A DNA stretch of 64,000 bases from Polyangiaceae bacterium (GCA_033763455.1 JANRKO010000019.1:160001-224000), one strand, 5' to 3'; numbered from the stretch's first letter, positions 5,625-46,689 are shown. Numbers and translations are program-made. Notes: a model not told the origin generated them from the letters alone.

Positions 5625-7069
5625 ATCACCGGAAGTGCTCTAAGCTGGGCTTTCGTTTTCTGATCTTGCCAGGGCAGGTGCCGCGTGGGTTCCACGAGCT
5701 CAGCGGCCAAGGAATTTTTGAAAGCGCGCAGAATGCGAACCTCGCAGACTTCCCCCACTGGGCTCGTGGTTGCCCAAAAGTGCACAATTTCGTTGCGTTC
5801 GGTGCGGCCTGTGTAGCCACCGCGCTGATTCAACCCCTCCACCAACACCTGCTGAGTGGTACCGATAAGGCTCGTCAGGTGCGCAATCCGTGCCCGCTCA
5901 ACCACATCAAACAACTCAGCCAAACGCCGAGCTTTTTCGGGCTCCGGCACGTCATCTTCCAGCTTGAGCGAAGGCGTGTGTGGCCGCGGTGAATACTTGA
6001 AACCAAAAAGCCCAACAAACCCAACTTTTTCAACGAGCTCTAACGTCGCCTGAAAATCCTCGAGCGTCTCTCCCGGAAAACCGACGATCACGTCGGTTGA
6101 AAGAGTCATCCCAGGCACCGAGTCCCTGAGGGCTGTGATGCGCTCAAGGTACTCTTCGGCACTGTAGCGCCGAATCATCTTCTTAAGCAGGCGGTCGCTG
6201 CCTGATTGCACAGGCATATGCACGTGTTTGGCGAGGATCGGTATCTCGGTGTGTGCCGAAATCAAGCGCGCTGTAAGGTGGCGCGGGTGCGGGCTCGTGT
6301 AGCGTAAGCGCAAAAGGCCCGGCACTTGGCGAGCAATCGCGTGCAAGAGTGCAGGGAATTCGCTTTCTGCCTCGTTGGCTCGAAGGTGCGGAGCTTGACG
6401 GAATTCGAGTGCCGAGGGCGGTGCAGCCGGCAGGCTTCCGGAAGGGTCGCGGTAGCTGTTCACCGTTTGCCCGAGTAGCGTCACTTCCTTCACCCCCGCC
6501 AAAACCAGCCGTTCGATCTCGTCTAAGATCTCTCTGGATGGGCGGTAGCGTTCTGGCCCGCGAGTGTATGGCACCACACAATACGAGCAGCGCTCATCGC
6601 ACCCCTTCATCACGGTTACGAAAGCGCTCGGCATGACTTTGCCCGCCTCGGGGCGTGCTTGCAGGAATTCAGGTGCGTCGAGATCGAACTCGGTGCGAAC
6701 CTGCGGAGGCGACCCGGCCTCCGCGCGGGCTAAAAGGGTGGGAAGCTCCGCAATGTTGTCCGGCCCGATCACGATGTCGATCTGCGGGAGCGTCTTGATG
6801 AGGCGTTCGCCTTCTTGTTGGGCCACGCAACCGGCAACGCCAATCAGGAGGCCGGGCCGCTCACGCTTGAGCAGGCCCAAACGCCCCACTTCACTGCGTA
6901 GCTTCTGTTCGGCTTTCTCTCGCACGCTGCACGTGTTCAGGAGCACCACGTCCGCCTCTTCGAGCTTCTCGGTCGCCCAATATCCGGCGCCCGTGAGCAC
7001 TTCGGAGAGGCGCTCTGAATCGTGGCTGTTCATCTGGCAGCCGAAGGTAATGACACTGAAAGCGGGCAT
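5621..7069 (-). CDS. miaB: tRNA methylthiotransferase MiaB
   Basis: TFGCQMN, NTCSVREKAE, GCVAQ, radical SAM CDERCSYC, C-terminal TRAM-like domain. Confidence 0.96.
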   Translation of the reverse strand: MPAFSVITFGCQMNSHDSERLSEVLTGAGYWATEKLEEADVVLLNTCSVREKAEQKLRSEVGRLGLLKRERPGLLIGVAGCVAQQEGERLIKTLPQIDIVIGPDNIAELPTLLARAEAGSPPQVRTEFDLDAPEFLQARPEAGKVMPSAFVTVMKGCDERCSYCVVPYTRGPERYRPSREILDEIERLVLAGVKEVTLLGQTVNSYRDPSGSLPAAPPSALEFRQAPHLRANEAESEFPALLHAIARQVPGLLRLRYTSPHPRHLTARLISAHTEIPILAKHVHMPVQSGSDRLLKKMIRRYSAEEYLERITALRDSVPGMTLSTDVIVGFPGETLEDFQATLELVEKVGFVGLFGFKYSPRPHTPSLKLEDDVPEPEKARRLAELFDVVERARIAHLTSLIGTTQQVLVEGLNQRGGYTGRTERNEIVHFWATTSPVGEVCEVRILRAFKNSLAAELVEPTRHLPWQDQKTKAQLRALPVM

Positions 7070-7210
7070 GGCCGGGCCCCTATAGCACGCAATCCGGGAC
7101 GGCCAGCCCCGGGCCCAAAGGGCTGGACCGCGGGAGCGGATTGACCGGCTCGGGCACGCTTCCTATCTTCCCGGAGTCCCGAAAATCCCGTCAATTTCTG
7201 GAGGAGCACT

Positions 7211-8974
7211 ATGGATCCCGAATACGCGAATCTCGTCGAACTGTTCGAGCAAGCCTGCGCCAAGTTCGATGCTCGCGAGTTGTTCGGAACCAAGCGGGGT
7301 GGCCGCTGGGAGTGGATGACGTTCGGGCAGTTCAAGGCCGACGTGGATAAGTGCCGGGGCGGCCTCGCGCAGCTGGGAGTGAGAGCCGGGGATAAGGTGG
7401 CGATAATCTCCAATAATCGCGTGGAATGGGCGGTGTTGGCGTACGCCACCTATTCGCTCGGGGCGGTTTACGTACCGATGTATGAAGTACAGCCCAAGGA
7501 TGAATGGGCTTTCATCTTGCATGATTCCGACGCCAAAGTGGTGGTCGCAGCGACTCGGGTGATTGCGGAAACGTTGGAAGGCTTGCGAACCGGCTGTCCC
7601 AAGTTGGAAAAGATCATCAGCTTGGAGGGCCCCGGTGGCTCCCTCTCTTACGAAGCCCTGCTCAGCCAGGGCGCCAGAACACCCAAAGATCCCGTGTATC
7701 CAGCGTCGAGTGAGGTTGCCGGCTTCATCTACACGTCGGGCACCACCGGGATGCCCAAGGGCGTAGTCCTCTCGCACTCGAACATCTGCTTCGACATTTG
7801 GGCCTCATTTTCCTGTTTTGACTTTGGCCCGCTAGACCGCTCGTTAGCGTTTTTGCCCTGGGCACACTCTTACGGCCAAGTAGCAGAGCTGCACGGGCTC
7901 CTTAGCCGCGGCACCTCGATCGCGATCAACGACGAGGTACCAAACCTCGTCGCCAACTTGGCCGAGGTGCGGCCAACCGTGCTGGTTGCCGTACCAAGGA
8001 TCTTTAACCGCATCTACGACGGCATCCAGAAACAGATGGCGGCCAAGCCGGGCGCCATTCGCGCGTTGTTCAAAAAAGGCGTCGACGTAGCCGGAAAAAA
8101 GAGCCGGGGTGAGAGAATTGGCACGCTCGATAGCATGGCCCACGCCTTGGCGGATAAGCTCATTTTCTCCAAGGTTCGAGCCAAATTCGGCGGCCGGTTG
8201 CGGTTTGTGGTGAGCGGAAGCTCGGCACTCAACAAAGACGTCGCCATGTTCATCGATGCGCTCGGAATCGAGGTTTATGAAGGATACGGCCTCAGCGAAA
8301 CGAGCCCCGTGGCAGCGAGCAATTACCCCGGGCACCGCAAGATCGGCAGCGTTGGCCTACCGCTACCAGGCGTCGAAATTCGTATTGATAAGAGCGTTTC
8401 CGATGATAACCACCAGGGGGAGATCTTGATCAAAGGTCGCAATGTAATGCAAGGTTATCACAATCGCCCGGAAGAAACGGCCCTAGTACTCCCAGGTGAC
8501 GGTTACCTCCGCACAGGAGATCTCGGCTACCTTGATGAAGACGGTTACCTCTTCATCACTGGGCGCCTGAAAGAGCAATACAAGCTGGAAAACGGTAAAT
8601 ACGTGGCGCCGGCACCGCTCGAAGAGGACCTCAAGCTTTCGCCGTTCATTCTAAATGCCATGCTGTACGGCGCCAACCACGCCTACAATGTGGCCCTCAT
8701 CGTGGTCGACAAAGTAGCAGTTGCCGAGTGGGCCAAAGAAAATGGCGTTGAACTAGGGGACCTCTCGAAGAACCAGAAGCTGAACGAACTTCTGTTTCGT
8801 GAGATTGAGACCTATGGGTCTAAATTCAAGAGCTTCGAGCGGCCCAAGAAGCTCTTCATCACCGACGAAGATTTTAGTACAGAAAATGAGCTTCTAACCC
8901 CATCCCTCAAGATCAAACGGCGCAATGTGTTGGCCAAATATGGCAAACAATTAGAGGCACTCTATTCGGAGTAA
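7211..8974 (+). CDS. Long-chain fatty acid-CoA ligase (AMP-dependent)
   Basis: YTSGTTGMPKG, YEGYGLSET, TGDLG, LLTPSLKIKR. Confidence 0.93.
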   Translation: MDPEYANLVELFEQACAKFDARELFGTKRGGRWEWMTFGQFKADVDKCRGGLAQLGVRAGDKVAIISNNRVEWAVLAYATYSLGAVYVPMYEVQPKDEWAFILHDSDAKVVVAATRVIAETLEGLRTGCPKLEKIISLEGPGGSLSYEALLSQGARTPKDPVYPASSEVAGFIYTSGTTGMPKGVVLSHSNICFDIWASFSCFDFGPLDRSLAFLPWAHSYGQVAELHGLLSRGTSIAINDEVPNLVANLAEVRPTVLVAVPRIFNRIYDGIQKQMAAKPGAIRALFKKGVDVAGKKSRGERIGTLDSMAHALADKLIFSKVRAKFGGRLRFVVSGSSALNKDVAMFIDALGIEVYEGYGLSETSPVAASNYPGHRKIGSVGLPLPGVEIRIDKSVSDDNHQGEILIKGRNVMQGYHNRPEETALVLPGDGYLRTGDLGYLDEDGYLFITGRLKEQYKLENGKYVAPAPLEEDLKLSPFILNAMLYGANHAYNVALIVVDKVAVAEWAKENGVELGDLSKNQKLNELLFREIETYGSKFKSFERPKKLFITDEDFSTENELLTPSLKIKRRNVLAKYGKQLEALYSE

Positions 8975-9061
8975 GCCCAATACCCCCGAAACCTAAACTA
9001 GCGACGGAAGCCAGCTTTGATTTCGGGGGTTGTGCTTGTGGCACGTGGTCAGCTTTCGCCA

Positions 9062-10174
9062 TCATGCGCCACTCTTGCCGTTGGTGAGAAGCTGCGCCGG
9101 GAGCAGTGATTGGAGCCCGTCGGCCCCAACCACCACCTTCACTTCTTGGATGTGCTGAGCGATCTCTTTCATCGCTTCCAGCTCCTTCAAGCGCAAAAGT
9201 ACCGGGTTTGCCTCCATAACCTTGGCCGTGTTCGCCAACGACCGCGTAGCGGCCGTTTCTTCACGACGTAAGATCACGTTGGCCGCAGCTTCCTTTTCGG
9301 CCTCGATCACGCGATTCAACAGGGCTTTCATTTCACCCGGCAAAACCACGTCTTTGACACCCACATGTTCGATCTTGACTCCCAGCGCCGTGGTGCATGC
9401 CGTAACCCGTCGCTCCATGAAGCGTGTCATTTCGTCACGCCCTTCGAGCAATTGATCGAGGGTTACCCCGGCCACGTATTCACGCGCGGCAAGCTGGGCT
9501 GCCGTGTAGACAGAATCCCGTAGGTTCTGCACCTTGGTTGCAACCACCACCGGATCAGAAACAGCGTATTCGGCCGTTAACGTCAAACGCAACGTCACCT
9601 TATCTCGCGTCATCAATTCCTGACCAGCAATGGTTACTTCCTGGCGCCGCATATCCACGACGCCAATCTCGGCCTTGGCTCCAGGGTGCGTCCACAACTT
9701 GTATCGGCCCGGCGGCAACACAGAAACGAAGCGCCCCTGCTCGTAACGCAAGCCCATTTGGTAGGCCAATACCGTTACGTCAATGTACTCATTGGACGGA
9801 ATCAACCGCTCCAACTCTGCCGACATTTCCGGCAAAGGCTGAGTAACATCGAACACCGAAAGCTGCACAGAAGCATCTACGGTCCAATAACGGTGCACCC
9901 CCGGGCGCAAAAATGCCACCGGCACACCATCTTTGAACAGGACACCTCGTTCACCAGAACCAATCACAACCTCACGAAACCAAGCAGAAGGCAGTTTTGC
10001 CCGGACTTCCGGCAGGGCTGAAAACAGCAAAACACTGGTATCGAACCGTTGCTCAGTGAGCCGCAACGACCAAACCCGATAACGGCCCGGGCCAAGTGCA
10101 GCTACAGGTAAGCCGTCCTTGAAAAGAACCACTCGTTCGTTTAACTTCACACGAATCAATTTTGACCACAACAT
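9062..10174 (-). CDS. Slipin family SPFH/band-7 protein
   Basis: Three LxPGxY/H N-terminal repeats, GQELMTRDKVTLR, VKDVVLPGEMK, RREETAATRSLANTA; SD GAGG upstream. Confidence 0.92.
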   Translation of the reverse strand: MLWSKLIRVKLNERVVLFKDGLPVAALGPGRYRVWSLRLTEQRFDTSVLLFSALPEVRAKLPSAWFREVVIGSGERGVLFKDGVPVAFLRPGVHRYWTVDASVQLSVFDVTQPLPEMSAELERLIPSNEYIDVTVLAYQMGLRYEQGRFVSVLPPGRYKLWTHPGAKAEIGVVDMRRQEVTIAGQELMTRDKVTLRLTLTAEYAVSDPVVVATKVQNLRDSVYTAAQLAAREYVAGVTLDQLLEGRDEMTRFMERRVTACTTALGVKIEHVGVKDVVLPGEMKALLNRVIEAEKEAAANVILRREETAATRSLANTAKVMEANPVLLRLKELEAMKEIAQHIQEVKVVVGADGLQSLLPAQLLTNGKSGA

Positions 10175-10653
10175 GGGTCACCTCTTGGGTTGATGGACTC
10201 CCACCTTCGGCGTGAGCACCATGCCCGCGCCTTTGGAGATCGTCGATTGCTGGTATTTGCCGATACCGTCGGCTTTCGGCGAGCCCGCCTTTGGCCCTAG
10301 TAGTAGGGAGAACGGGACTCGGAAGATGTGCGGGGGCTCTGCAGACTGCTTGAGCCCGAAATTAGTGGCTCCAGAGGTTCAAAGCCCGGCGCCTAGGTTG
10401 AAGCGCAGTGTGAAGCCGCCGTAGCGGCCTCCGAAACGCTTCTCGCTTGAGCGTCTTGGGTCCGATGATTTGCGCGAAATCACTGCGATCTCACCCGGTT
10501 GCAGTCAGCGGGCGCCGAGGCGATGGCCGAAGCTTGCGAGCGAAATGTACGTGAGTTTGGGCAAAACTCGGGTCCGTTCGCCTTCCCCCAATGGCTGCGG
10601 AAGGGCTTTGAAAACCTCTGGAAACCTGGTGTGAATGCCTTTTTAAGGCCAGG

Positions 10654-10722
10654 CCCTTTGCTCTACCCGATGAGCTACAACTCCGTGAGGAGAAGATCGG
10701 ATTCGAACCGACTACCGAAGGG
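10654..10722 (-). ncRNA. Circularly permuted tRNA-like module (YrlA-type topology)
   Basis: CCCTT-CGGTA-GTCGG TTCGAAT CCGAT-CTTCTCC-TCAC-GGAGTTG-TA-GCTC ATCGGGTA GAGC-A-AAGGG: T-arm precedes D-arm and the acceptor-like stem is closed by a 4-nt loop. Confidence 0.72.
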
Positions 10723-10866
10723 TTCTGCCGTGACAGGGCAGTGTCATCCATGACAAGCATGCTTCCGGGACACAACTACCGGACATCCATCGGTGACTCA
10801 CGAGGAGACCAATGCACGCAGTGTTGCGCCGTTTTGAAGCAAGCTTCGCGGGATTCGAACCCGCGG

Positions 10867-10940
10867 CACACAAGGCAAGATTCGAACTTGCACTCTACTG
10901 ATATAGAATCAGCGGCCTCTACCTTTTGGGCTACATGTGT
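10867..10940 (-). tRNA. Atypical tRNA-like gene with CUA (amber) anticodon
   Basis: ACACATG TA GCCC AAAAGGTAGA GGC C GCTGA TTCTATA TCAGT AGAGT GCAAG TTCGAAT CTTGC CTTGTGT G: full cloverleaf, one U-U acceptor mismatch, U at 37, followed by CCG rather than CCA. Confidence 0.75.
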
Positions 10941-10993
10941 TAATTGGTTGCATACGGTTGGTCCTCTTGCTTTGAATATCGAGCCGGGAAATG

Positions 10994-11026
10994 AAAAAAG
11001 CCGCCGAGGTAACCCTGGGCGGCTTC
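10994..11026 (-). terminator. Intrinsic terminator / attenuator hairpin
   Basis: AAGCCGCC...GGCGGCTT stem running into a T6 tract; lies between the leader ORF and the tRNA-like array. Confidence 0.8.
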
Positions 11027-11050
11027 ACACAGAAACACTGCGTAAACGCC

Positions 11051-11179
11051 CTAGGGGGAGCCCCGAAAATCGCGAAAATTGCCGACTAAGCTGCGCTCGC
11101 GGCGTGCACCACAGACGAAAGCCATGCCAAGATTTGGCAGCTGTTGTGCTGTGATGGTGAAACGGTGGAAGTGCTTCAT
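11051..11179 (-). CDS. Putative leader peptide (42 aa; not in the ORF track)
   Basis: MKHFHRFTITAQQLPNLGMAFVCGARRERSLVGNFRDFRGSP-TAG; starts 11 nt after a -10-like box and ends about 25 nt before the terminator. Confidence 0.55.
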   Translation of the reverse strand: MKHFHRFTITAQQLPNLGMAFVCGARRERSLVGNFRDFRGSP

Positions 11180-11190
11180 GAGGAGGCCGC

Positions 11191-11218
11191 AGAGTACGGA
11201 TCTAGAAAAACAAGTCAA
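11191..11218 (-). promoter_or_regulatory. Sigma70-like promoter
   Basis: TTGACT-N16-TACTCT with an A-tract further upstream. Confidence 0.55.
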
Positions 11219-11304
11219 CACAATATCGCTCAGGCGTGTTTTTTTTACGAGGTGACGTTGCTCGCGATCCTCATTTCAAAGCTCCACCATGCAACACAGA
11301 GTCC

Positions 11305-11997
11305 CTAGAGGCGAGCCGTCCAGACGCGTTCAGCGCTGCCGGGGCGAGTCACGAACAAGCGCAGTGTTACCGGAGCCCGTTCACCCATGAGATAAAGCAC
11401 GCGGATTTTGTGCTCCCCGGGAGCCAGCGGGATGCTGCCCATCGCATTATGAGCCTTCCTGCTGTCGTCGTTGTTCACGACTTGGCGGCCATTAATCCAC
11501 AGGATGGCGGCGCCCTGGGTCTTTAACCGAAACTTATAGTTGCCAGCCGCCGAAACGGAGAATCTGCCAGTGTAGTTAATGGCAAACCAGTCGTAGCGCT
11601 CGGCGATTCCTGGGAAACCCGAAAAGTAGCGCTGAGCTACGTCCAAGCTATCCACGAACAAGCGACCTTGCGGGATGCACCGTTCAAGGCGCAGCAAAGA
11701 CACTGTGTTAGGCTTAACAAAGCACACTGTACCCGCGAGCGCTGCTTTGCGGCTGTGGCCAAACAAGGTGCTCCCCGACACCACAGGTACGCGACCACCT
11801 TTGTGACTCGCCCAACGCTCGCCCATGCCAGCGGGCGTGCCGCCTTGCTCGACACCGTACCCGTCCATTCTGTTGCGGCTAGCAGTTCGGATCCGTTCCC
11901 CCAACGACTGACCATGGGCCGCGCCAGCTAAGCTCAGCACTCCAAGTGCCACGCGACTCCCCCACTTCCACAACGTCCCGATCACCATGCGTTTCAC
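11305..11997 (-). CDS. Secreted PA14-domain protein
   Basis: Signal peptide; WFAINYTGRF..AGNYKFRL....GAILWING..VVNND and LAPGEHKIRVLY fit the PA14 pattern. Confidence 0.75.
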   Translation of the reverse strand: MKRMVIGTLWKWGSRVALGVLSLAGAAHGQSLGERIRTASRNRMDGYGVEQGGTPAGMGERWASHKGGRVPVVSGSTLFGHSRKAALAGTVCFVKPNTVSLLRLERCIPQGRLFVDSLDVAQRYFSGFPGIAERYDWFAINYTGRFSVSAAGNYKFRLKTQGAAILWINGRQVVNNDDSRKAHNAMGSIPLAPGEHKIRVLYLMGERAPVTLRLFVTRPGSAERVWTARL

Positions 11998-12151
11998 TTC
12001 ACTAGCACAAGTGCCCAGTGGACCGCGCCATCAGCTAAGACATGCTGTGGAAACAATTAAGCAAACTGCCCGAAAACCCTAGAGAAATCCTGACATTTCG
12101 AGTGCTGGTTTCCCTTGCTATGCCGGGAGCGGGCGTCTATCTCCGTGACTC

Positions 12152-13603
12152 ATGGATCTCAAACACTACGAAGTGGATCCGAAGAGTTACGACGAAATGT
12201 TCGACGCGAGCGGCGAGGTTCGGCCGGCCTATCGGGAACTTGCGCGGCGGCTCGGCGAAATGTCCGGTGAAGATTTCACCCGGCGGCAACGCACGGCAGA
12301 TATCTTGCTGCGAAACCAGGGCGTCACGTTCACCGTGTACTCGGACGACGCGGGCATTGAGAAGGTTTTTCCGTTCGACCCCATCCCGCGCCTGATGCCT
12401 GCCGAAGAATGGAGCCTGATTGAACGCGGCTTGATTCAGCGCATTGAGGCCTTGAACCTTTTCATTGCTGACATCTATGGGGATCAACACATCCTCAAAG
12501 ACAAAGTGGTTGATCCTGAGCTCATCTTAGGCGCCTCATTTTTCCGCCGTGAGATGATGGGGTTTAGGCCGCCTCGTGGGATCTATACCCACATCACCGG
12601 CACAGATTTAATTCGCGATGCCAACGGAAAATTCGTCGTCCTAGAAGACAATGCTCGGAACCCAAGCGGCGTGAGCTACGTGCTTGAATGCCGCGCAGTT
12701 CTGAAACGTGTCTTCCCGCTCTTGTTCGAAACGTACGGAGTGCGCCCGGTTGAAGATTACGCCAATTGGCTCCGCGACATGATGCAATTTGTAGCGCCAC
12801 GAGGCTCATCCAATCCAAGCATGGTGGTGCTGACGCCGGGCATCTACAATTCGGCGTACTTCGAACACAGCTTTTTAGCCCGCCAAATGGGTGTACCGCT
12901 CGTCGAAGGTCGAGATTTGGTCGTAAAAGATGGAATGGTGTGCATGCGCACGATTACCGGGCTGCAGCGGGTGGATGTTATCTACCGGCGCCTGGATGAT
13001 GACTTTCTGGACCCACTTATCGGTCGCCCTGATTCGGTATTGGGCTGCGCGGGGCTTTTCTCGGCGTATCGCAGTGGGGCGGTGACGCTCGTGAACGCAC
13101 CAGGCACAGGCGCCGTGGACGATAAAGCTGTCTACCCGTTCGTGCCGGACATGATTCGTTATTATCTTAAGAGTGAACCTATCATTGACAACGTTCCAAC
13201 CTATTTGGCAACCCGCCCGGATGAGCAGAAGTACATGCTCGAGAATATCCACGAACTGGTGATCAAACAGACCGACGCTTCCGGCGGCTACGGCATGTTG
13301 ATTGGCACGCACTCTACGGCAGAGGAACGCGAAGACTTCAAACGGCGCATCAAGGCTAAGCCCCGCTCCTACATTGGCCAACCCACTATCAGTCTCGGCA
13401 AACATCCCACAGTAATCGACGGTAAGCTGGAAGGGCGGTGCGTCGATTTGAGGCCTTATGTCCTTTATGGCGAGCGAATTTCGGTCATTCCAGGAGCCCT
13501 CACCCGGGTGGCACTCAGGAAGGGCTCTCTCGTTGTTAATTCAAGCCAAGGTGGTGGCTACAAAGATACCTGGGTGCTCACTGATAAGGGAGGCGCAGCC
13601 TAA
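12152..13603 (+). CDS. Circularly permuted type 2 ATP-grasp protein
   Basis: [55 protein letters not shown]. Confidence 0.93.
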
Positions 13604-14520
13604 TGTTAAGCCGAGTTGCAGACGCCCTTTATTGGATGAGCCGTTACGTCGAACGTGCTGAGCACGCAGCACGTGTCCTCGAGGTCACACGCCGCATGTT
13701 GATCGACGTTGAGCCCCTCGCCCCTCAAATGGCCAAACGCATTCGGGACGACGCATTTCGCAGCTTGGGCCTTCCGGGCGTCGACTTGCACGGAGCCATC
13801 TTCGACGAATCAGAGCCTGGGTCTATCGCCTCCTCTGTCTTCAGAGCCCGAGAGAATGCTCGTCAGGTGCAGGAGGTTATTAGCTCGGAGATGTGGGGCT
13901 ATATCAACGAGACGCACTGGATGCTCTCGGAGGCCCGTCGGGCGGGGCCTTCGCGTGAGCTGCCAGACCTCTTGGGTGAAGTAGTAAAGGCTGGGTTTCT
14001 TTGGGCTGGGGTTACGGATGCCACTATGGGTCGCGGGCCTGGTTGGTTGTTTATTCGCCTGGGCCAGTTCGTTGAACGAGCGGACCGAACGAGTCGAATT
14101 TTTGCGGCACAATGGGAGGCCATCGAGGAGTTGAGTACTGAGGCCATCCACACCTCGGGCGATCACTTTGCCTGGCTCACATTGCTTCGGAGTTGCGGAT
14201 CGCTTGAGGAGTATAGGAAGCGGTACCCAACACGCATGACAGCACGGCAAGTGGCGGATTTTATGCTGCTAGACGACACCTTTCCGCGCACCGTGCGCTA
14301 CTCAGTCTCAGTTGCGGCCGAATTTTCAAAACGCTTAACCCAGTTCGCAAGCCCCGAACGCGCCCGCGCTGAACGCGCGTTTGGGAGAGTCGCTTCTCGC
14401 ATCGAATACACCACCATCGACGAAGTTATGGAGACCGGCCCAGCTGTGTTCGTGAGAGGCGTTGCAGAAGAGATCTTGCTGGCGACAGCCGAGCTCCAGA
14501 GCGCGTATTTCTTGCACTAA
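13603..14520 (+). CDS. Alpha-E domain protein
   Basis: [38 protein letters not shown] (ER motifs). Confidence 0.92.
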   Translation: MLSRVADALYWMSRYVERAEHAARVLEVTRRMLIDVEPLAPQMAKRIRDDAFRSLGLPGVDLHGAIFDESEPGSIASSVFRARENARQVQEVISSEMWGYINETHWMLSEARRAGPSRELPDLLGEVVKAGFLWAGVTDATMGRGPGWLFIRLGQFVERADRTSRIFAAQWEAIEELSTEAIHTSGDHFAWLTLLRSCGSLEEYRKRYPTRMTARQVADFMLLDDTFPRTVRYSVSVAAEFSKRLTQFASPERARAERAFGRVASRIEYTTIDEVMETGPAVFVRGVAEEILLATAELQSAYFLH

Positions 14521-14529
14521 CGAGGACCC

Positions 14530-15549
14530 ATGCTGCTGTTCATCAAACACCTCACCGAACTCACGTATTCGGAGCCCATCACCGAAACGGTGATGGAAGT
14601 TCGCATGACTCCGCGAAACGATGCCCACCAAGTGCGGCGCGCGTTTCGCCTGGAGGTGGGGCCCAGCGCCACACCTTTCGAACACACAGATTGGCTCGGT
14701 AACCGCGTGCAGCAGTTCTCCATTTTGCCCCCGCACGATAAAGTCGTGATCTTGGCTCGGAGCGTGGTGGATACGCAGCCAAGGCACTCAGTGCTCGCAG
14801 ATGTGAATCGCGGGTCAGTGCCTCCGCTCGACCATCGAATCGGCGACTATTTGCGCTTCACCGGGCCGGTTGTGGACGTTCACAACCTCGACCGTTTGAT
14901 TCAAAATTTGGGGCTCGGGGCACCGGCGTCGCCTGAAGTTATTCTGCAACGAGTCGCGTCAAACCTGCGCGATCACGTGGAGTACCGTAAAGGCGTTACC
15001 ACGAGCGCCACGGCGATCGACAAGGTGCTCGAGCAGCGCGCTGGTGTGTGCCAGGATCTGGCTCACGTGGCCATTGGGATCTTGCGCAAGCTCGGCGTAC
15101 CAGCTCGCTACGTGTCGGGGTATTTCTATCGCGCGGATGGAAACAGCGAGATGGAGAGCCATGCTTGGTGCGAGGCGCACTTCCAGGGCACAGGTTGGCT
15201 CCCGATAGATCCCACCCACAAAACACTGGCGGGCGAAGGGCACGTTGCTATCGCGAGCGGTCGCGATTTCTCTGACGTTTCACCCAATCGCGGCGTCTAT
15301 CGCGGCAAGGGTGAAGAGAGCCTGCGCGTAAGAGTCACCGTGCAAGAGGTGCAAGAGGTACCCGAAGGCTTATTTGCCGTAGGCTCACCCGAAGTCGAGG
15401 TGCAGCCAATTGGAGGAGGCATGCTTCCCACCCACCGCGAAGCTCTCGAATACCAGCAAGAACAGCAGCAACAGCAGCAACAGCAGCAACAAGTACAGCA
15501 GCAACAGCAGCAACAAGTACAGCAACACCAATATTCGGCTGTGCACTGA
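14530..15549 (+). CDS. Transglutaminase-like protein with poly-Gln tail
   Basis: GVCQDLAH, ARYVSGY, SHAWCE, DPT, GRDFSDVSP. Confidence 0.92.
   Translation: MLLFIKHLTELTYSEPITETVMEVRMTPRNDAHQVRRAFRLEVGPSATPFEHTDWLGNRVQQFSILPPHDKVVILARSVVDTQPRHSVLADVNRGSVPPLDHRIGDYLRFTGPVVDVHNLDRLIQNLGLGAPASPEVILQRVASNLRDHVEYRKGVTTSATAIDKVLEQRAGVCQDLAHVAIGILRKLGVPARYVSGYFYRADGNSEMESHAWCEAHFQGTGWLPIDPTHKTLAGEGHVAIASGRDFSDVSPNRGVYRGKGEESLRVRVTVQEVQEVPEGLFAVGSPEVEVQPIGGGMLPTHREALEYQQEQQQQQQQQQQVQQQQQQQVQQHQYSAVH
15454..15531 (+). repeat. CAG/CAA trinucleotide tract encoding a polyQ tail
   Basis: Encodes QQEQQQQQQQQQQVQQQQQQQVQQHQ. Confidence 0.9.
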
Positions 15550-15559
15550 GCCTTATCCC

Positions 15560-18500
15560 ATGGCCATTCGAGTTCGTCTCAGTCATCAAACGCGTTACCG
15601 TTACGACAAGCCCATTAACCTGGGCCCACAAACGGTTCGCCTCCGACCAGCACCCCACAACCGCACGCCCCTACACACGTATGGGCTTCACATCGAACCC
15701 AAGGGCCACTTTCTCAATTGGCAGCAGGATCCTTACGGCAATTATCTGGCAAGGCTGGTTTTCCCAGAAAAGGTAGACCATTTTGAAGTCACCGTCGATT
15801 TGGTCGCCGATCTTGAGGCGTACAATCCGTTTGATTTTTTCGTCGAGCCAGAAGCCGAGAATTTCCCTTTCAGCTACGAGCCCACACTTAAAAAAGAGCT
15901 AGAGCCCTATCTAGAGCAAGACCCCCTAACGCCCGCCCTCGCAGCTTTCATCGACAGTTTGAACAAGACACCGCGGAGAGTTAACGATTTCCTTGTAGAA
16001 ACGAACCGCGCTGTAAATGAGGCCGTTAGCTACATTATTCGCCTGGAGCCGGGCGTCCAAAGTCCCGAAGAAACGCTCACTCTGGCCAAGGGCTCGTGTC
16101 GAGATTCTGCATGGCTATTGGCGGTGGTGTTGCGAAAGCTAGGCCTGGCGGCCCGGTTTGTTTCCGGATACCTCATCCAGCTCACGCCAGATCAGCGCCC
16201 GATTGAAGGCGCCCAGGGCCCGCTCGCAGACTTTTGCGACTTGCATGCCTGGTGTGAAGTCTACGTTCCCGGCGCCGGTTGGATTGGGTTAGATGCAACG
16301 AGCGGGCTTCTGACAGCCGAAGGGCACATTCCGCTCGCGTGTTCCCCAAGCCCAGGTTCTGCGGCACCCATTTCGGGGCTGTTGGATGAAGCCGAAACCG
16401 ATTTCAGCCATCACATGTTTGTGGAACGCGTGGTGGACGTTCCCCGCGTCACCAAACCCTATACCGATGAAGAGTGGGCCGCCGTTGAGAAGTTCGGCAC
16501 CAAGGTGGATGAGCATCTAACGCGCTCAGACGTTCGCCTCACCGTAGGGGGTGAGCCCACCTTTGTGAGCACCGAATACCCGGATGACGCCGAATGGAAC
16601 ACGGACGCCCTTGGTAAAAATAAGGAAGGCCTTGCCGATAAGCTGATTCGCCGTTTGCGGAGCGACTGGTATCCCAAAAGCGCCCTCTACCATGCGCAGG
16701 GCAAGTGGTACCCGGGTGAGCCTTTGCCGCGGTGGGCTATTTCCTGCTTCTTTCGCACCGACGGCGTGCCCGTTTGGAATGATCCTGCGCTTATAGCCGA
16801 TACCAACAAGAGCTACGACCACGGGCCCAAAGAGGCCGAAGCCTTCGCAAAGCGTTTGATCGAGAATCTCGGGCTCGAGCGCCACGGCCTGATGCCAGCG
16901 TTTGAGGATGCTTGGTACTACATGTGGCGCGCGCGGCGTTTACCTGTAAACGTGATGCCGCTCGATAATCGCGTGGATGATGAGGTGGAGCGCGAGCGAA
17001 TAGCGGCCGTATTCAACCAAAAGCTATCCAGCGTGGTGGGCTATGTGCTCCCCCTGACGTATTGGGGTGGTTGGCGCAGTGGGTCTTTTTTCCTCAAAGA
17101 TGAACGCTGCTACCTGCTTCCTGGTGATTCGCCGATGGGTTACCGCTTGCCTTTGGATTCCCTACCGTGGATCGCCCAGGAAGATTGGGACGGCAACATT
17201 CCGGTAGATCCTTTCGCGCGCCAGCCTTCGTTGCCAAAGGCCTTTCACTTCCCGTTGATGCCGGCGCCCGCGATGCCGGCGCCTATCCGCCGTGTGGTGC
17301 CTTCTCTGCCGAAAGCCGAAGTTGCGCCCAACGGGCAGCCAAAAGGCGCCGTTCCTTCACCTCGCGGCGCCGCCCCAGGCAGCACTCATGCCGCGCCGTT
17401 CACGTCACCCGCACAGTTCGAGTCTGCCACGGGCGTGGTGCGCACCGCTTTGTGTGTCGAGCCCCGAGCCGGTCGTTTGCGGATCTTCTTGCCTCCACTG
17501 GAAACGCTCGAAGCGGCCCTTGAGCTCATCGCCGCCATCGAAACAACCGCGGCGCAGCTGAAGCTACCCGTGCAACTGGAAGGCTACGAACCCCCGAGGG
17601 ATCCGCGGCTCGGCGTGTTTCGTGTCACTCCGGATCCGGGTGTGATCGAGGTCAACGTGCCCCCGGTCTCCAGTTTTGCGGCGCAGAAGCTCCAAACCCT
17701 CTCGCTCTATGAACACGCTCGCCAAGTAAAGTTGAGCGCCGAAAAGTTTGATCTCGACGGCACCCACATCGGCAGCGGCGGTGGCTACCACCTCGTGCTT
17801 GGCGGAATGACGCCTGAAAATAGCCCATTTTTGCGGCGACCAGATTTGCTCGGCAGTTTGATTCGTTATTTTCACAACCACCCCAGCCTCTCTTATCTTT
17901 TCTCAGGGCGCTTCATCGGCCCCACCTCGCAATCGCCACGCGTGGATGAAGGCCGCAACGACAGCATCTACGAACTCGAAATAGCTCTCCAACAGTTGCC
18001 GCAAAAGGGGCAGAACGTTCCACCGTGGATTGTGGACCGTGTGCTCCGGCACTTGCTCGCAGACGTTACTGGCAACACCCATCGGACGCAGTTCTGCATC
18101 GATAAGCTCTATTCCCCCGATAGCGCTACAGGGCGGCTCGGCCTCTTGGAGCTGCGCTCTTTCGAAATGCCACCGCATGCCCAAATGGCGGTCGTGCAAC
18201 AGCTCTTAGTGGGCGCTATGGTCGCGAGTTTTTGGGAGCAACCTTATCGTGAAGATCTGGTGTCGTGGAACACGATGCTGCACGATAAATTCATGCTCCC
18301 CTACTTCGTAAAGCGTGACTTTTACGAGGTGCTGGCCGATCTTGAGCGACGCGGATTCAAGCTCGATCGCCACTGGTTCGAGCCACATTACCAGTTTCGG
18401 TTCCCGTATATCGGGCACGTGGTTAAGGATGCTGTAACCCTAGAGATACGTGGCGCTCTCGAACCCTGGAATGTGCTCGGAGAAGAGAGCACTGGAGCCG

Positions 18501-18949
18501 GGACTGCCCGCTACGTGGATTCATCAGTTGAACGCTTGCAGGTACGCGTATTCGGTGCCACACCCGGCCGGCATATTGTGTGTTGCAACAACGTGGAGCT
18601 ACCGCTTGTTGCCACTGGCGTGGAAGGCGAAATGGTAGGGGGCGTGCGTTATCGAGCCTGGCAACCCCCATCATGCCTTCACCCAACCATCGGCGTTCAG
18701 TCACCGCTTGCGTTCGATTTGTACGATCGTTGGAACGGCGTGGCGATTGCGGGGGCCACCTATCACGTAGTGCACCCGGGAGGCCGGGCGGATGAGGTCC
18801 GCCCCGTAAATGCAGCAGCCGCGGAAAGCCGCAGGCTCGCTCGCTTCGAGGCTCGCAGCGTAGGCACCCGTTTGGTTCAACCGCGGCGCCTGGAGCCCCA
18901 TCCGAAGTTCCCATTTACGCTCGATTTACGCCGGGCTTGGCTAGCCTAA
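15560..18949 (+). CDS. Transglutaminase domain fused to DUF2126 (putative amidoligase)
   Basis: GSCRDSAW, DLHAWCE, GGEPTFVS, GKWYPGE, PDPGVIEVN, TLDLRR; start placed at MAIRVRL. Confidence 0.88.
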   Translation: MAIRVRLSHQTRYRYDKPINLGPQTVRLRPAPHNRTPLHTYGLHIEPKGHFLNWQQDPYGNYLARLVFPEKVDHFEVTVDLVADLEAYNPFDFFVEPEAENFPFSYEPTLKKELEPYLEQDPLTPALAAFIDSLNKTPRRVNDFLVETNRAVNEAVSYIIRLEPGVQSPEETLTLAKGSCRDSAWLLAVVLRKLGLAARFVSGYLIQLTPDQRPIEGAQGPLADFCDLHAWCEVYVPGAGWIGLDATSGLLTAEGHIPLACSPSPGSAAPISGLLDEAETDFSHHMFVERVVDVPRVTKPYTDEEWAAVEKFGTKVDEHLTRSDVRLTVGGEPTFVSTEYPDDAEWNTDALGKNKEGLADKLIRRLRSDWYPKSALYHAQGKWYPGEPLPRWAISCFFRTDGVPVWNDPALIADTNKSYDHGPKEAEAFAKRLIENLGLERHGLMPAFEDAWYYMWRARRLPVNVMPLDNRVDDEVERERIAAVFNQKLSSVVGYVLPLTYWGGWRSGSFFLKDERCYLLPGDSPMGYRLPLDSLPWIAQEDWDGNIPVDPFARQPSLPKAFHFPLMPAPAMPAPIRRVVPSLPKAEVAPNGQPKGAVPSPRGAAPGSTHAAPFTSPAQFESATGVVRTALCVEPRAGRLRIFLPPLETLEAALELIAAIETTAAQLKLPVQLEGYEPPRDPRLGVFRVTPDPGVIEVNVPPVSSFAAQKLQTLSLYEHARQVKLSAEKFDLDGTHIGSGGGYHLVLGGMTPENSPFLRRPDLLGSLIRYFHNHPSLSYLFSGRFIGPTSQSPRVDEGRNDSIYELEIALQQLPQKGQNVPPWIVDRVLRHLLADVTGNTHRTQFCIDKLYSPDSATGRLGLLELRSFEMPPHAQMAVVQQLLVGAMVASFWEQPYREDLVSWNTMLHDKFMLPYFVKRDFYEVLADLERRGFKLDRHWFEPHYQFRFPYIGHVVKDAVTLEIRGALEPWNVLGEESTGAGTARYVDSSVERLQVRVFGATPGRHIVCCNNVELPLVATGVEGEMVGGVRYRAWQPPSCLHPTIGVQSPLAFDLYDRWNGVAIAGATYHVVHPGGRADEVRPVNAAAAESRRLARFEARSVGTRLVQPRRLEPHPKFPFTLDLRRAWLA

Positions 18950-19050
18950 AGTTGGGTGCTTGAACGGCCTGGCACCTACGGGCACAACGCTAACCTCTGC
19001 CTCTCCCAGGCACCGCGAGCGCTAGGACCCACTCACGGCAAAGGACCCGT

Positions 19051-21609
19051 TTGCTCCCAACCCAGTTTCAGTCCCAATCCCAGTCAGAACCGCCTCCGTC
19101 CACGGGCGGTGGCGAGTCCTACGACGAGATCTGGAGCGGCCCTGGCCACGCGAGGGCCCACCAGGCGCTCTTGCAGGAGCACCTACTAGTTCAGCCCCTG
19201 GACGATCTGCTGAAGGTTCGCCAGGCGGTTGAGCGTCAGATGGCCGAGCAAGCTGTTACGTTCAACATCTTGGGCGTTCCCGGAGGCGAAAACCGCTCTT
19301 GGGAGCTCGACCCAATCCCATGGGTGATTGAAAGTCGCGAATGGGCAGAGCTGTCGCGGAAGCTCGTACAACGAGCCCAGCTCCTGGAAGCGTTCTTGGC
19401 GGACTGTTACGGCCCGCAACGCATGCTGCGCGAAGGTGTCATTCCGGCCCGCGTGGTCCTCGCCAATCCAGACTTTCTGCGAGCGTGTCACGGCTGGCGC
19501 CCACTCGGAGAGAAGCGTCTATGGCTCTACGCTGCAGATCTCGCACGCGACAAAGCTGGTGATTTTCACGTATTTTCCGATCGCGCCGCAGCACCTACAG
19601 GGGCGGGCTACGCGCTCGAAAATCGCCTGGTTTTGGGGCGGGTTTTAGGGGATTTGTTCCGTGAATACCGGGTCACGAAAGTTCGGGGTTTCTTCGAAAA
19701 GCTGAAGGCGTGCGTAGCCGAGTTGGCTCCACCGGGCCGCCCCGATCCCCGTGCGATCGTGCTCACAACGGGCATGCAAGATGAGAGTTCGTTCGAGCAT
19801 GCCTACTTAGCTCGCTACCTCGGCTTTGATCTTATGGAGGGCCGAGATCTGAGCGTGAGAGACGGCAAAGTCTTCCTAAAGACAGTCGCCGGGCTCACCC
19901 AGATCGACGTGATTTTGCGCCGTGTTCCAGATGCCTTCTGTGATCCTGTCGAGCTTCGCGAAGATTCCATGATCGGCGTTCCCGGCCTCGTGGAAGCCGC
20001 CCACGGAAAACACATTGGGTTGGCCAATCCGCTTGGGGCAAGCCTCATCGAATCACCTGCAATGAAAGCATTTCTCGGGCCCCTGTGCCAAGCCCTTCTG
20101 GGAGAGGATTTGCTGTTACCTTCGGTGGAGACTCACTATCTCGGGACGCCCGGATCGCTAGAATACGTACAATCCAAGCCTGAAGAATTCCTGATAAAAC
20201 CAGCCTTTGCAGAGCGTCGCGGGGCGATTCGGCCTTTGGGCGAGTTGAGTATCTCCGAGCGAACAACGCTTTTAGATTCTGTGAAGGCGCGCCCTCACGA
20301 CTTCGTAGCGGAACGCTGGCCCGCCTGCTCTCGCAGCCCCCTTCTCACTCGACACGGCCTCGGAGCAGGAAGGCTTACCCTGCGCTCATTTCTGTGCCGC
20401 GACAAAGAATCTTTCGCCGTGATGCCGGGGGGCTTCGCACGGCTTGATTCAACACCAGACGGCATCTTCCTCACCAACCGCCTTACGCGAACCTGCAAAG
20501 ACGTTTGGATCCCTGAGGTGGGTACGACCTACGACATGAAGTTGCCGCAGATGCCCGATCAACGCATGTCGCTCCGACGTGGTGCCCAAGATCTACCAAG
20601 CCGCTTGGTGGACGATATTTTTTGGTTGGGGCGTTACATCGAACGCACCGATGCTTCAGCTCGTTTGATCCGCGCCGGTTTTGACCGCCTAGGAATGGAA
20701 GCCGCTGGTGACGCGCAGCAAGTATTAGAAGCAATTCTTGAAGCGTTGAAGCTCAAGGGGCAGCTACCAGCGACGTTCGATGTGCGCGGTATGTTTTCGA
20801 AGCCCGATAATCGAGCCCTGGCGCAGGTGCTAAACGGCGCATTATTCGATCAAACCTCCGGCAGCAGCGTGTACGCCACGCTCGATCGTATCCACAAACT
20901 CATGATCGGCGTAAGAAGCCGCCTTTCCCGTGACGCGTGGCATACGTTGAGGCGTCTTACGAGTGCCCTGGATGCAACCCCACTGCACCATTCGTCGCTC
21001 GGCACGGCCGAGATCTTGGAACTTCTGGACGAGCTTCTGGTACTGCTTTCTGCTGCCACCGGAGCCACGCTCGATAACATGGTGCGAGGCCACGCCTGGC
21101 TGTTTCTCGATCTCGGGCGCCGCCTTGAACGAGCGTCGGCTACCCTGGAACTGTTGGAAGCGATGCTGCCATCAGGGGCCACGCGCGCGCACATGGAATG
21201 CTTATTGGAAGTTACAGATAGCTTGCTCACGTATCGCGCCCGCTACGTTTCTAGCCTGCAAGTGGCCCCCATCGTTGACCTCCTACTTACAGACAATACC
21301 AATCCGCGCTCTGTGCTCTTTCAAGTCGAAACCATCGATCAGCACGTAGAAGCACTACCTAACCAAAGCGGCGCTCTGGTAACACGAGCCGAAAAGCGCG
21401 TGCTCACCCTCCGAACCCGCCTCGTCGCAGCAGATATCGAGGAAGCCACCGGGGGTCAAGGCGAAGGCCTGCGCCAACTTGTGAAAGACGCCGCCGAGCT
21501 TGTTTGGCAGCTCTCTGATGATATCGCCGCGACGTGGTTTTCACACGCAGCCCCCTCACGCTCGCTCACCATTCCCGCTTGGGTTAACGAACAACTCGAA
21601 CGCCAGTGA
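19051..21609 (+). CDS. Circularly permuted ATP-grasp / alpha-E fusion
   Basis: WELDPIP, APTGAGYALENR, FEHAYLARYLG, then LPSRLVDDIFWLGRYIER and LGRRLER. Confidence 0.9.
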   Translation: MLPTQFQSQSQSEPPPSTGGGESYDEIWSGPGHARAHQALLQEHLLVQPLDDLLKVRQAVERQMAEQAVTFNILGVPGGENRSWELDPIPWVIESREWAELSRKLVQRAQLLEAFLADCYGPQRMLREGVIPARVVLANPDFLRACHGWRPLGEKRLWLYAADLARDKAGDFHVFSDRAAAPTGAGYALENRLVLGRVLGDLFREYRVTKVRGFFEKLKACVAELAPPGRPDPRAIVLTTGMQDESSFEHAYLARYLGFDLMEGRDLSVRDGKVFLKTVAGLTQIDVILRRVPDAFCDPVELREDSMIGVPGLVEAAHGKHIGLANPLGASLIESPAMKAFLGPLCQALLGEDLLLPSVETHYLGTPGSLEYVQSKPEEFLIKPAFAERRGAIRPLGELSISERTTLLDSVKARPHDFVAERWPACSRSPLLTRHGLGAGRLTLRSFLCRDKESFAVMPGGFARLDSTPDGIFLTNRLTRTCKDVWIPEVGTTYDMKLPQMPDQRMSLRRGAQDLPSRLVDDIFWLGRYIERTDASARLIRAGFDRLGMEAAGDAQQVLEAILEALKLKGQLPATFDVRGMFSKPDNRALAQVLNGALFDQTSGSSVYATLDRIHKLMIGVRSRLSRDAWHTLRRLTSALDATPLHHSSLGTAEILELLDELLVLLSAATGATLDNMVRGHAWLFLDLGRRLERASATLELLEAMLPSGATRAHMECLLEVTDSLLTYRARYVSSLQVAPIVDLLLTDNTNPRSVLFQVETIDQHVEALPNQSGALVTRAEKRVLTLRTRLVAADIEEATGGQGEGLRQLVKDAAELVWQLSDDIAATWFSHAAPSRSLTIPAWVNEQLERQ

Positions 21610-22475
21610 CGCTCTACCGCCTCCGCCACCTCACGCGCTACCAATACGAATCGCCGGTTGTGCACGCACACCACGTGGCGAGGATGCGCCCCATGCCGTC
21701 GCCATTTCAGCGGGTTTTGTCCAGCGAAATCACGACCAGCCCGGAAGCAACCTTTACGGCGAGCGTGCGAGATTATTACGGCAATCTACAAGATTTTTTC
21801 GAAATTCTGAAAGATCACGATGTGCTCGAGGTAACGGCCGTGAGTGAAGTAGAGCCGCTCCTCCGTCGGCCCGGGGGCGCCCTGGAAGGCTATGCGTTAA
21901 CCTGGGAAGATGCTCGCCTCGTAGCCAGTGCGCCCTACACGGAGGTCGAGGATTTCGGGTACGATTCCCCTCTAGTGCGGGTCCACCCAGATCTTCGGGC
22001 GTATGCGGCTCCGAGCTTTCCACCTGGGCGCCGCATCGTCGAAGCCGTGAGCGACCTTAATCAGCGCATTTTTGATGAATTTGCATACGACCCTGCGGCC
22101 ACAGATGTGACCACTCCGCTCGGAGAGGTTCTCCGTGAAAAGCGCGGCGTTTGCCAGGATTTTGCGCACCTTGCCATCGGCTGTTTGCGAAGCCTGGGCC
22201 TGCCTGCGCGCTACGTGTCCGGTTACCTTGAGACGGCGCCGCCTCCCGGCGAAGAACGCTTGGTGGGCGCTGATGCTTCACACGCCTGGGCTGAAGTGCA
22301 CCTGCCAGGGCTAGGGTGGCTTGAGTTTGACCCCACGAACGCTGTTCTGCCTTCAACGAAGCATATTCGCGTGGCTCACGGTCGCGACTTCAGTGACGTG
22401 AGTCCGCTTAAGGGTGTTGTCTTGGGCGGCGGGCGCCACACGCTCACTGTCGAAGTGGATATGGCGCCGATCTGA
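21606..22475 (+). CDS. Transglutaminase-like protein
   Basis: GVCQDFAH, ARYVSGYLET, GADASHAW, FDPTN, GRDFSDVSP. Confidence 0.93.
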   Translation: MTLYRLRHLTRYQYESPVVHAHHVARMRPMPSPFQRVLSSEITTSPEATFTASVRDYYGNLQDFFEILKDHDVLEVTAVSEVEPLLRRPGGALEGYALTWEDARLVASAPYTEVEDFGYDSPLVRVHPDLRAYAAPSFPPGRRIVEAVSDLNQRIFDEFAYDPAATDVTTPLGEVLREKRGVCQDFAHLAIGCLRSLGLPARYVSGYLETAPPPGEERLVGADASHAWAEVHLPGLGWLEFDPTNAVLPSTKHIRVAHGRDFSDVSPLKGVVLGGGRHTLTVEVDMAPI

Positions 22476-24516: not shown

Positions 24517-24987
24517 GTGAAACTCTCGAATAAGGGCCGCTATGCTGTGCGGGCGCTGTTCGATATCGCGTTTTTCAACGGTGGGCAGCCCACTCAGGTG
24601 AAGGACATCGCGGAGCGGCAGCAAATTCCGCCGCGTTTCCTGGAGCAGATCTTTCAAGATCTCAAGCGCGCGGGCCTCGTAGGTTCGAAGCGGGGGCCTC
24701 AAGGGGGCTACAACTTGGCGCTAGGCGCCGGAGAGGTGCGCCTCGGGGACGTGGTGCGTGCGCTTGAGGGCCCTATCTCGCTCGGAGACCGTGAGTCCGA
24801 AGGAGGGGCCAACGCTGCCAAGGAGCCCGCGGGCAATTCCCGGCGGATCACCGAACAGATATTTGTGGATCTTTCGGCGCGCGTCGAAGCCTGTTTTGAC
24901 GCAATCACTATTCAACACATCTGTGATCTTGCGGAAGCTGAAGGGCTTAGGCGCCCAGGAGCGCAACGTTATGTCTACGTCATCTGA
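24517..24987 (+). CDS. Rrf2 family transcriptional regulator (CymR/IscR-like)
   Basis: KLSNKGRYAVRALFDIA, IAERQQIPPRFLEQIF, SKRGPQGGY. Confidence 0.93.
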   Translation: MKLSNKGRYAVRALFDIAFFNGGQPTQVKDIAERQQIPPRFLEQIFQDLKRAGLVGSKRGPQGGYNLALGAGEVRLGDVVRALEGPISLGDRESEGGANAAKEPAGNSRRITEQIFVDLSARVEACFDAITIQHICDLAEAEGLRRPGAQRYVYVI

Positions 24988-26699: not shown

Positions 26700-26710
26700 A
26701 AGGAATAGTC

Positions 26711-26980: not shown

Positions 26981-27000
26981 TCCCTTGCTGCTCCGGCACT

Positions 27001-36963: not shown

Positions 36964-37046
36964 GGCCTAGGGTGGCCACCGAATTGGGCGTTTTTCAGCG
37001 CCGTTTCAACTTCGCGGCCTGCCCCAATCCCGAAAACCCACGTTTT

Positions 37047-41704: not shown

Positions 41705-41731
41705 AGACGGTCCGCTCCTCATCTGCACCTG

Positions 41732-46682: not shown

Positions 46683-46689
46683 GAGCACC

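Follow-up and report, generated by a model that had tools for sequence, protein, structure and literature searches.

The only tRNA gene in a 64,000-nucleotide stretch of Polyangiaceae DNA (hereafter the window) carries a CUA anticodon; it is a real tRNA, most likely of leucine-type descent and left over from a lost tRNA array. This gene, T1 (10867-10940 on the minus strand), joins a CUA anticodon, U37 and G73 to the body of a family of short class-I tRNAs with leucine anticodons. We observed that the fold of T1 was maintained while nt 35, 37 and 73, which serve leucine decoding and charging, changed. Comparison with related loci suggests, at a probability of about 0.58, that T1 is a non-decoding, structurally maintained tRNA module of an RNA locus associated with an SPFH/Band-7 gene.

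T1 is a complete tRNA and is not tRNA-Pyl

Across the 64-kb window, the single tRNA call by ARAGORN was at 10865-10940 (-) with anticodon cta; the program labelled it 'tRNA-Pyl' on the basis of the anticodon alone. The Rfam tRNA model RF00005 matched T1 over its full length at 10867-10940 (-) (50.3 bits against a gathering score of 29, model positions 1-71; E = 8.3e-08 with the whole window searched). Based on this score and E-value, T1 is not a chance match. The anticodon, which reads UAG, was placed at 10904-10906 (-) by both ARAGORN (linear position 35) and the Rfam alignment. The Rfam alignment and the sequence gave a 7-bp acceptor stem with a U6.U67 mismatch. The D stem has three pairs plus C13.A22, a rule followed throughout the short Leu family described below. 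A 5-bp anticodon stem carries the 7-nt loop UUCUAUA with U33 and U37 (CUA at 10906-10904), the variable loop has 5 nt, the T-loop is UUCGAAU, and G73 is followed by CCG. The original prediction had described a complete cloverleaf with this anticodon loop, variable loop, T-loop, G73, U37, U6-U67 mismatch and CCG, and ARAGORN, the Rfam alignment and the sequence bear it out.

Hallmarks of tRNA-Pyl are a 6-bp anticodon stem, a 3-nt variable loop and a non-canonical T-loop. The 5-bp anticodon stem, 5-nt variable loop and UUCGAAU T-loop of T1 agree with the earlier statement that it is not tRNA-Pyl. That statement also held that the window has no pyl genes, and we found no pylS, pylB, pylC or pylD in Pfam scans of 45 window ORFs. 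Structure and gene content together rule out a tRNA-Pyl identity for T1.

A PA14-domain ORF (11305-11997) and an SPFH/Band-7 gene co-oriented with T1 (9062-10174 (-), 370 aa; Pfam PF01145, 3.2e-29) stand 1.1 kb apart, and T1 occupies this gap. It is 693 nt upstream of the SPFH/Band-7 gene, on the same strand. A terminator-like hairpin with a run of six U (10991-11026 (-)) lies ~50 nt upstream of T1 and separates it from the PA14-domain ORF. The fold of 10988-11032(-), which contains this hairpin, reached −22.1 kcal/mol (z = −4.66) and was equalled by none of 200 shuffles; a simple terminator scan made no call at 10991-11026. A sigma-54 consensus scan gave 40 matches in the window compared to 39.9 expected, none of them between the upstream hairpin and T1, and a sigma-70 scan found nothing in 10100-11400.

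T1 resembles short class-I tRNAs with leucine anticodons

We compared the window Band-7 protein with GTDB species genomes and obtained 80 related loci at 50-70% identity, the best of them at 70% identity to the window; none came from a genome near enough to hold the same tRNA gene. All 80 are from Myxococcota, mainly Polyangiaceae and Kofleriaceae metagenome-assembled genomes (MAGs), plus Labilithrix luteola. ARAGORN called 358 tRNAs in these Band-7 loci, or 359 with the window copy. The three best pairwise matches of T1 among the 358 were short tRNAs with Leu anticodons (53/72, 51/72 and 49/74 identical positions). These short class-I tRNAs form a family of 12 ARAGORN-called copies in nine Myxococcota loci, with the anticodons CAG, AAG, CAA and UAA.

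An alignment of the 11 distinct members of this family (alignment A2) contains 28 invariant columns. T1 keeps 24 of these and departs at both members of the 6:67 pair, at nt 35 and at nt 73; it also departs from the family at nt 37. The D arm is common to the family and T1, as are the 5-nt variable loop and the T-loop UUCGAAU. A35 and A73 were invariant in 11/11 members, and T1 has U35 and G73 instead. A covariance model built from the 11 members with the window excluded scored T1 at 66.9 bits, the second-best hit outside the training set, compared to 84-94 bits for the training members and up to 65 bits for generic tRNAs. The model score thus gives moderate support to a place of T1 in the short Leu family and does not decide it.

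The plasmid collection gave no match to T1. The sole match in 50,697 phage records was a 74-nt class-I tRNA of Synechococcus phage S-CRM01, annotated as tRNA-Leu and with anticodon UAA (HQ615693.1, 88544-88617), which lends the family assignment independent support. Its D arm is the same as that of T1, and its anticodon stem and T arm are similar (78.7% identity over 60 nt); it differs in its Leu anticodon, G37 and A73, and the match is marginal (E = 7e-3). An origin from tRNA-Trp by a change of CCA to CUA was considered; none of six array tRNA-Trp genes was within the 30 best pairwise matches of T1. Two clearly homologous Leu tRNAs, at the same position in two related loci, differ in their variable arm, which is long in L033:9383-9476 (94 nt) and nearly absent in L040:3432-3509 (78 nt). 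This pair suggests that short class-I Leu tRNAs arose through deletion of the variable arm.

A conserved RNA cluster lies between T1 and the Band-7 gene

Directly after G73-C of T1 begins T2 (10847-10865 (-)), a lone T-arm-like hairpin with a 6-bp stem and the loop UUCGAAU, as determined by folding and a 13-locus alignment. Its first bases are those of the 'CCG' tail. The T1/T2 junction could be aligned in 13 loci including the window, in the order T1 arm, 7-nt acceptor strand, N73, CC, G and T2 hairpin, and the 12 non-window loci come from different families. N73-CC-G was present in 11/13 aligned loci, and the discriminator was G in 4/13. With the junction aligned in 13 loci and CC-G kept in 11 of them, we count the 'CCG' tail and the additional T arm as conserved features rather than decay. 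The original prediction listed CCG in place of CCA as an oddity of T1; these bases instead form the conserved link to a second hairpin of T-arm type. Ahead of the Band-7 start, T-loop motifs follow a set spacing, with T2 27 nt on from T1 and T3 (see below) 150-190 nt further. This pattern was seen in the window (−713, −686 and −534) and in 12 other loci. The 3' end of T1 lies 143 nt upstream of T3, compared to 142-148 nt for the nearest tRNA in seven relatives.

The junction and the family comparison bear on whether the anticodon of T1 is a base-call error for CAA or CTG, or the tRNA and T arm together an att-site scar. We regard this reading as highly improbable. CUA is one base from CAA, which occurs in the short Leu family, but U37, G73 and U6.U67 would each require an independent error. 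A partial T arm behind a tRNA does resemble an attL/attR duplication; an integration scar is ruled out by the same junction in 12 other loci and by the lack of an integrase in Pfam scans of the 45 window ORFs.

The spacer between T2 and the downstream modules contains a long imperfect hairpin (10755-10846 (-)). The segment 10725-10866(-) folded at −61.9 kcal/mol (z = −3.91), and none of 200 shuffles was as stable. The long hairpin holds an ACGGCGC motif at 10826-10832 (-), a candidate site for protein binding or processing. Inspection by eye of 26 rows from relatives showed the motif in six; it sits 20-30 nt downstream of either T2 or T1. Folding also gave an anticodon-arm-like hairpin (10725-10741 (-)) with a 5-bp stem and a 7-nt loop just before T3, and similar hairpins were seen by eye in relatives. 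This hairpin corresponds to the 'V' stem-loop of YrlA. A partial Rfam tRNA match spans 10696-10754 (20.3 bits).

T3 (10642-10724 (-)) is a YrlA-like circularly permuted tRNA mimic, identified through the Rfam YrlA model and covariation. Its parts run in the order outer stem, T arm, closed acceptor-like hairpin and D arm. The YrlA model (RF02553) matched 10656-10720 at 27.4 bits, under its gathering score of 69, and sub-threshold YrlA matches to T3 were found in six of the seven relatives searched (30-41 bits against 69). In a MAFFT alignment of 33 T3 sequences, 94.2% of cells were paired compared to 66.6% after shuffling, and none of 500 shuffles reached the observed value. Compensatory changes were found in 19/20 pairs of these 33 sequences, and slid controls were 34-42% paired. 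T3 is a covarying structured RNA. The window T3 has two U.U mismatches in its acceptor-like stem and scored 69.6 bits under model R2, with the window in the training set. T2 and T3 as decayed pieces of tRNA genes were ruled out by the conserved T2 junction and the covariation of T3.

We searched the related loci with a structure-based T3 model, which replaced an nhmmer iteration that drifted onto tRNA-tRNA junctions. Such junctions scored ~20-45 bits under the structure model, and the elements at the T3 position scored 58-81 bits. At least 48 bits were reached just upstream of the Band-7 gene in 43/80 loci, 32 of the 43 being in the training set. The distance from T3 to the Band-7 start codon downstream was 335-557 nt (T3 lies, for example, at L029:9433-9518 and L040:3651-3735). 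In Kofleriaceae loci, a T3 variant combines a D arm of class-II type with an anticodon-like arm after it. At L045:9107-9627 and L053:9278-9635, ARAGORN 'tmRNA' calls coincide exactly with the Y-like module that precedes the Band-7 gene; the permuted tRNA-like domain has probably misled the program.

The position of T1 is conserved in related loci, and its occupant varies

Across the 43 T3-bearing relatives, the conserved position that corresponds to T1 (the slot) held an ARAGORN-called tRNA in 18 loci and a degenerate tRNA-like element, found by model R1 only, in four; it was empty in 21. Conservation of the amber anticodon among homologues bore directly on the original prediction, and what we found speaks against it. 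The slot tRNAs of the 18 loci have 11 kinds of anticodon (UUC, CUC, CAA, GAG, CAG, GCU, GCC, GUG, GUA, UCG and GAA), other positional homologues have no anticodon loop, and CUA was absent across the 43 loci. A 5-nt loop or a tetraloop replaces the anticodon loop in the slot elements of L038 and L039. The slot of L031 (L. luteola) has the short-Leu scaffold of T1, with a 21-nt loop in place of the anticodon loop. The closest Band-7 loci with upstream DNA (L001, L002, L003 and L005) have T2 and T3 or T3 alone, and no T1. Because these four loci do without it, the Band-7/T3 unit does not require a role of T1.

At least one tRNA was present in 28/80 loci, and in 15/80 a run of 11-30 co-oriented tRNAs immediately precedes the Band-7 gene (L004, L006, L007, L009, L013, L021, L022, L025, L026, L033, L035, L037, L040, L076 and L077). 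Some of these 15 arrays also extend just downstream of the Band-7 gene; in L022, arrays occupy 6400-9315 and 11584-12774. The array tRNAs vary unusually in their anticodon loops. Among the ARAGORN-called array tRNAs, C33 replaced the near-universal U in 25 (L006, L007, L009, L013, L016, L022, L025, L026, L035, L076, L077, L079, L080 and others), and six had a pyrimidine at position 37.

RNA repair genes were sought in the fetched DNA of the 80 loci by Pfam and tblastn. RtcB was found in nine loci, RtcR in five, RtcA in five, RlaP in two and Ro60/TROVE in one (L031). Pfam scans of the 64-kb window gave no RtcB, RtcA, RtcR, Ro60 or RlaP. Two loci, L026 and L077, have their array flanked by rtcR (rtcBA being divergent) on one side and by the Y-like RNA, Band-7 gene and RlaP on the other. 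L031 (CP012333) has three Y-like modules (8722-8832, 9131-9228 and 9524-9603), flanked by the Ro60/TROVE gene (6583-8343) and the Band-7 gene; RtcR, RtcB and RtcA lie upstream. It is a full Rsr/Y RNA/Rtc/Band-7 locus in a cultured strain.

A distinct family of 68-71-nt tRNA-like elements is marked by a G at T-loop position 55 (GTGCGAATC and similar) and was found at L028:9368-9438, in L032 and L042:9360-9430, and also at L076:9343-9413; it occupies the slot in loci without arrays. This G55 family may be the dedicated Band-7-associated tRNA-like RNA.

The T1 fold was maintained while decoding and charging positions changed

We observed that 19/20 pairs of T1 were intact despite 11 stem differences from the nearest family member, with four pairs changed on both sides. 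As many pairs were kept in a fraction of ~0.0001 of 20,000 random-substitution trials, a test that does not date the end of constraint. Because 19/20 pairs were kept compared to random substitution, the T1 fold was constrained for most of its history. Position 37 was a purine in 352/359 tRNAs; the U37 of T1, one of seven exceptions, is an oddity, as had been predicted. No other of the 258 tRNA-like hits had a GC content as low as that of T1 (0.46), and folding of the RNA on its own was weak (−18.8 kcal/mol, z = −1.56). Low GC and a weak fold also fit decay.

T1 could accordingly be read as an inert relic, the last gene of a deleted array, recently freed from all selection, decaying and yielding no useful processed product. 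We consider this possible but doubtful. The window has no array compared to the 11-30 tRNAs of 15/80 relatives, the closest relatives have no T1, and the low GC and weak thermodynamic stability of T1 point the same way, as do U6.U67, U37, G73 and the nonsense anticodon, and the acceptor-like stem of the window T3 with its two U.U mismatches. Against decay, the intact pairs and the 24/28 invariant positions persist at ~70% identity to the nearest member. The changes in T1 lie at sites of decoding and identity, plus a single stem pair, and are not scattered over the body. Conservation extends to the T1/T2 junction and to the distance of 143 nt from T3. These data favor a maintained, non-decoding module.

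Two further features were dropped from this comparison. U32-A38 pairing was considered as a sign of a non-decoding tRNA, but 55/359 tRNAs have a Watson-Crick 32-38 pair. The missing encoded CCA was considered as a sign of decay, but CCA is encoded in just 129/358 of the relatives' tRNAs.

T1 is unlikely to be a working amber suppressor

An intact cloverleaf with all elbow nucleotides is also expected of a working suppressor. As a suppressor, T1 would be matured, receive CCA, be charged and read UAG, perhaps only upon induction of the locus. We judge this unlikely. Charging would be by GlnRS- or TrpRS-like recognition of U35 with C34 and A36, G73 and the weak 1:72 pair. The complete cloverleaf, with its RF00005 score and kept elbow nucleotides and fold, agrees with a suppressor, as do U33 and the 7-nt anticodon loop, and an encoded CCA is not the rule among relatives.

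Several observations argue against suppression. T1 has U37 where nearly all of the 359 tRNAs have a purine, and its Leu-type body has lost the family-invariant A73. LeuRS uses A73 as its main identity element and ignores the anticodon. Because A73 is that element, G73 would block T1 as a leucine-inserting suppressor. None of the 358 tRNAs in the 80 related loci has a CUA, UUA or UCA anticodon, the Leu family having only the four sense anticodons named above, and the slot anticodon is not conserved. TAG terminates 8/42 long ORFs in the window (19%), including the ORF directly upstream of T1, so TAG is an ordinary stop here and TAG recoding was ruled out. We saw no sign of recoding, and pyl genes were absent from the window ORFs scanned.

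A more specific version, in which T1 is a conditional amber suppressor in an RNA-damage response module, induced with the Band-7/Y-like RNA unit and extending some proteins by way of a Leu scaffold re-identified through G73, is less likely still. The original prediction offered two identities for T1, a Gln-type suppressor or a non-decoding decoy. Descent does not support the Gln-type identity, since the nearest relatives are tRNAs with leucine anticodons; the decoy is the better fit.

Proposed history of the locus

We propose that the ancestor of T1 was a short class-I leucine-type tRNA. In related Myxococcota, tRNAs of this kind stand in long arrays that separate RNA-repair genes (RtcR/RtcB/RtcA, Ro60/Rsr and RlaP) from a YrlA-like RNA with its SPFH/Band-7 gene. 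The window genome would then have lost the array and the repair genes near Band-7, leaving before Band-7 a conserved RNA cluster of T1, T2, the structured spacer and T3. T1 would no longer decode, and we infer that CUA is incidental to relaxed selection on the anticodon loop. If T1 is retained at all, it would be retained for its tRNA shape.

Two roles could be served by such a shape. T1 may be a tRNA-like partner of a Band-7 scaffold, as has been proposed in print for b7a-tRNA. It may otherwise act as a handle for RNase P or 3'-end processing, by which the Y-like RNA downstream is freed from a transcript that would start after the upstream terminator and run into the Band-7 gene.

The amber anticodon of T1 alone probably holds no recoding story, and its context is more useful. 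The locus offers a concrete, testable case of the unvalidated partnership of SPFH/Band-7 with a tRNA-shaped RNA in RNA repair. In Polyangiales-like Myxococcota, the slot can hold a degenerate tRNA-like element, a single tRNA or a whole array of 20-30 genes set between rtcR/rtcB and the Y-like RNA. This variety ties long tRNA arrays, Y-RNA-like mimics and Rtc repair into one locus. Such arrays may supply tRNAs in an emergency or act as decoys once tRNAs are damaged. For annotation, 'tRNA-Pyl' or 'suppressor' calls made from the anticodon alone can be array-derived, non-decoding tRNAs.

Other genes of the window

On the other side of the PA14-domain ORF, 12152-22475 (+) contains two consecutive sets of genes for a circularly permuted ATP-grasp, an alpha-E and a transglutaminase-like protein, with a 1179-aa DUF2126 amidoligase-like protein between the two sets. 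A PALP/ThiF/PALP/JAB cluster at 24758-28795 (+) looks like sulfur-carrier chemistry. Menaquinone-type genes occupy 36972-48243 (+) (UbiE-like, chorismate-binding, TPP enzyme, hydrolase, UbiA, enolase-like and AMP ligase). They are followed by a solitary PIN-domain gene at 48520-48894 (+) and by a 3430-aa TPR-rich giant ORF at 53694-63986 (-), which reaches the window edge.

Comparison with known systems

Nonsense suppressor tRNAs and tRNA-Pyl share with T1 a CUA anticodon in a full cloverleaf. T1 differs from them in its U37 and unconserved anticodon, in a genome region where TAG is a normal stop and pyl genes are lacking.

Long tRNA arrays have been described as supernumerary and horizontally spread, with rtcB and an HNH nuclease in the neighbourhood (Santamaria-Gomez et al. 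2021, PMC8421152). According to that report, the arrays are induced by translational stress, are co-regulated with rtcB, and may act as tRNA supply or nuclease sponges. The related loci are similar to the arrays as described there in having 11-30 co-oriented tRNAs, RtcB and an HNH gene. The window, in contrast, has a single tRNA and no array. Our literature search returned no report of published tRNA arrays in Myxococcota or beside Band-7; supplements may contain some.

The YrlA architecture was described by Chen et al. 2014, and tandem tRNAs can mimic it, as stated in PMC4201824. T3 and YrlA have in common the order V, T arm, closed acceptor-like stem and D arm. They differ in that T3 elements score 27-41 bits, below 69, and in that Ro60 is adjacent in just 1/80 loci (L031). 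The YrlA likeness is a feature of T3 and not of the CUA tRNA T1. Burroughs & Aravind 2016, as relayed in the preprint 10.1101/312249, predicted that YrlA is occasionally adjacent to Band-7, and the window, with its YrlA-like RNA next to a Band-7 gene, is such a case as the preprint words it. The same preprint relays their prediction that tRNA-like RNAs serve as cofactors in RNA ligation.

A Band-7-associated tRNA-like RNA next to RtcB (b7a-tRNA) was also predicted, and is not validated, according to 10.1101/312249. We found no publication on b7a-tRNA beyond this preprint, our literature search found none on SPFH with RtcB and a tRNA-like RNA, and no b7a-tRNA family was among the Rfam hits for the window. 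The RtcB link that the preprint describes for b7a-tRNA is present in 9/80 related loci and absent from the 64-kb window. On the preprint's description alone, the counterpart of b7a-tRNA in the window could be T1 or T3. T1 is like b7a-tRNA, as described there, in being a tRNA-looking gene that adjoins a Band-7/SPFH gene in the same orientation, a likeness of gene context. The T1-type slot is filled in 22/43 T3-bearing relatives. Unlike b7a-tRNA as the preprint presents it, T1 has the canonical cloverleaf of an array-type Leu family and is not obviously a dedicated family of its own.
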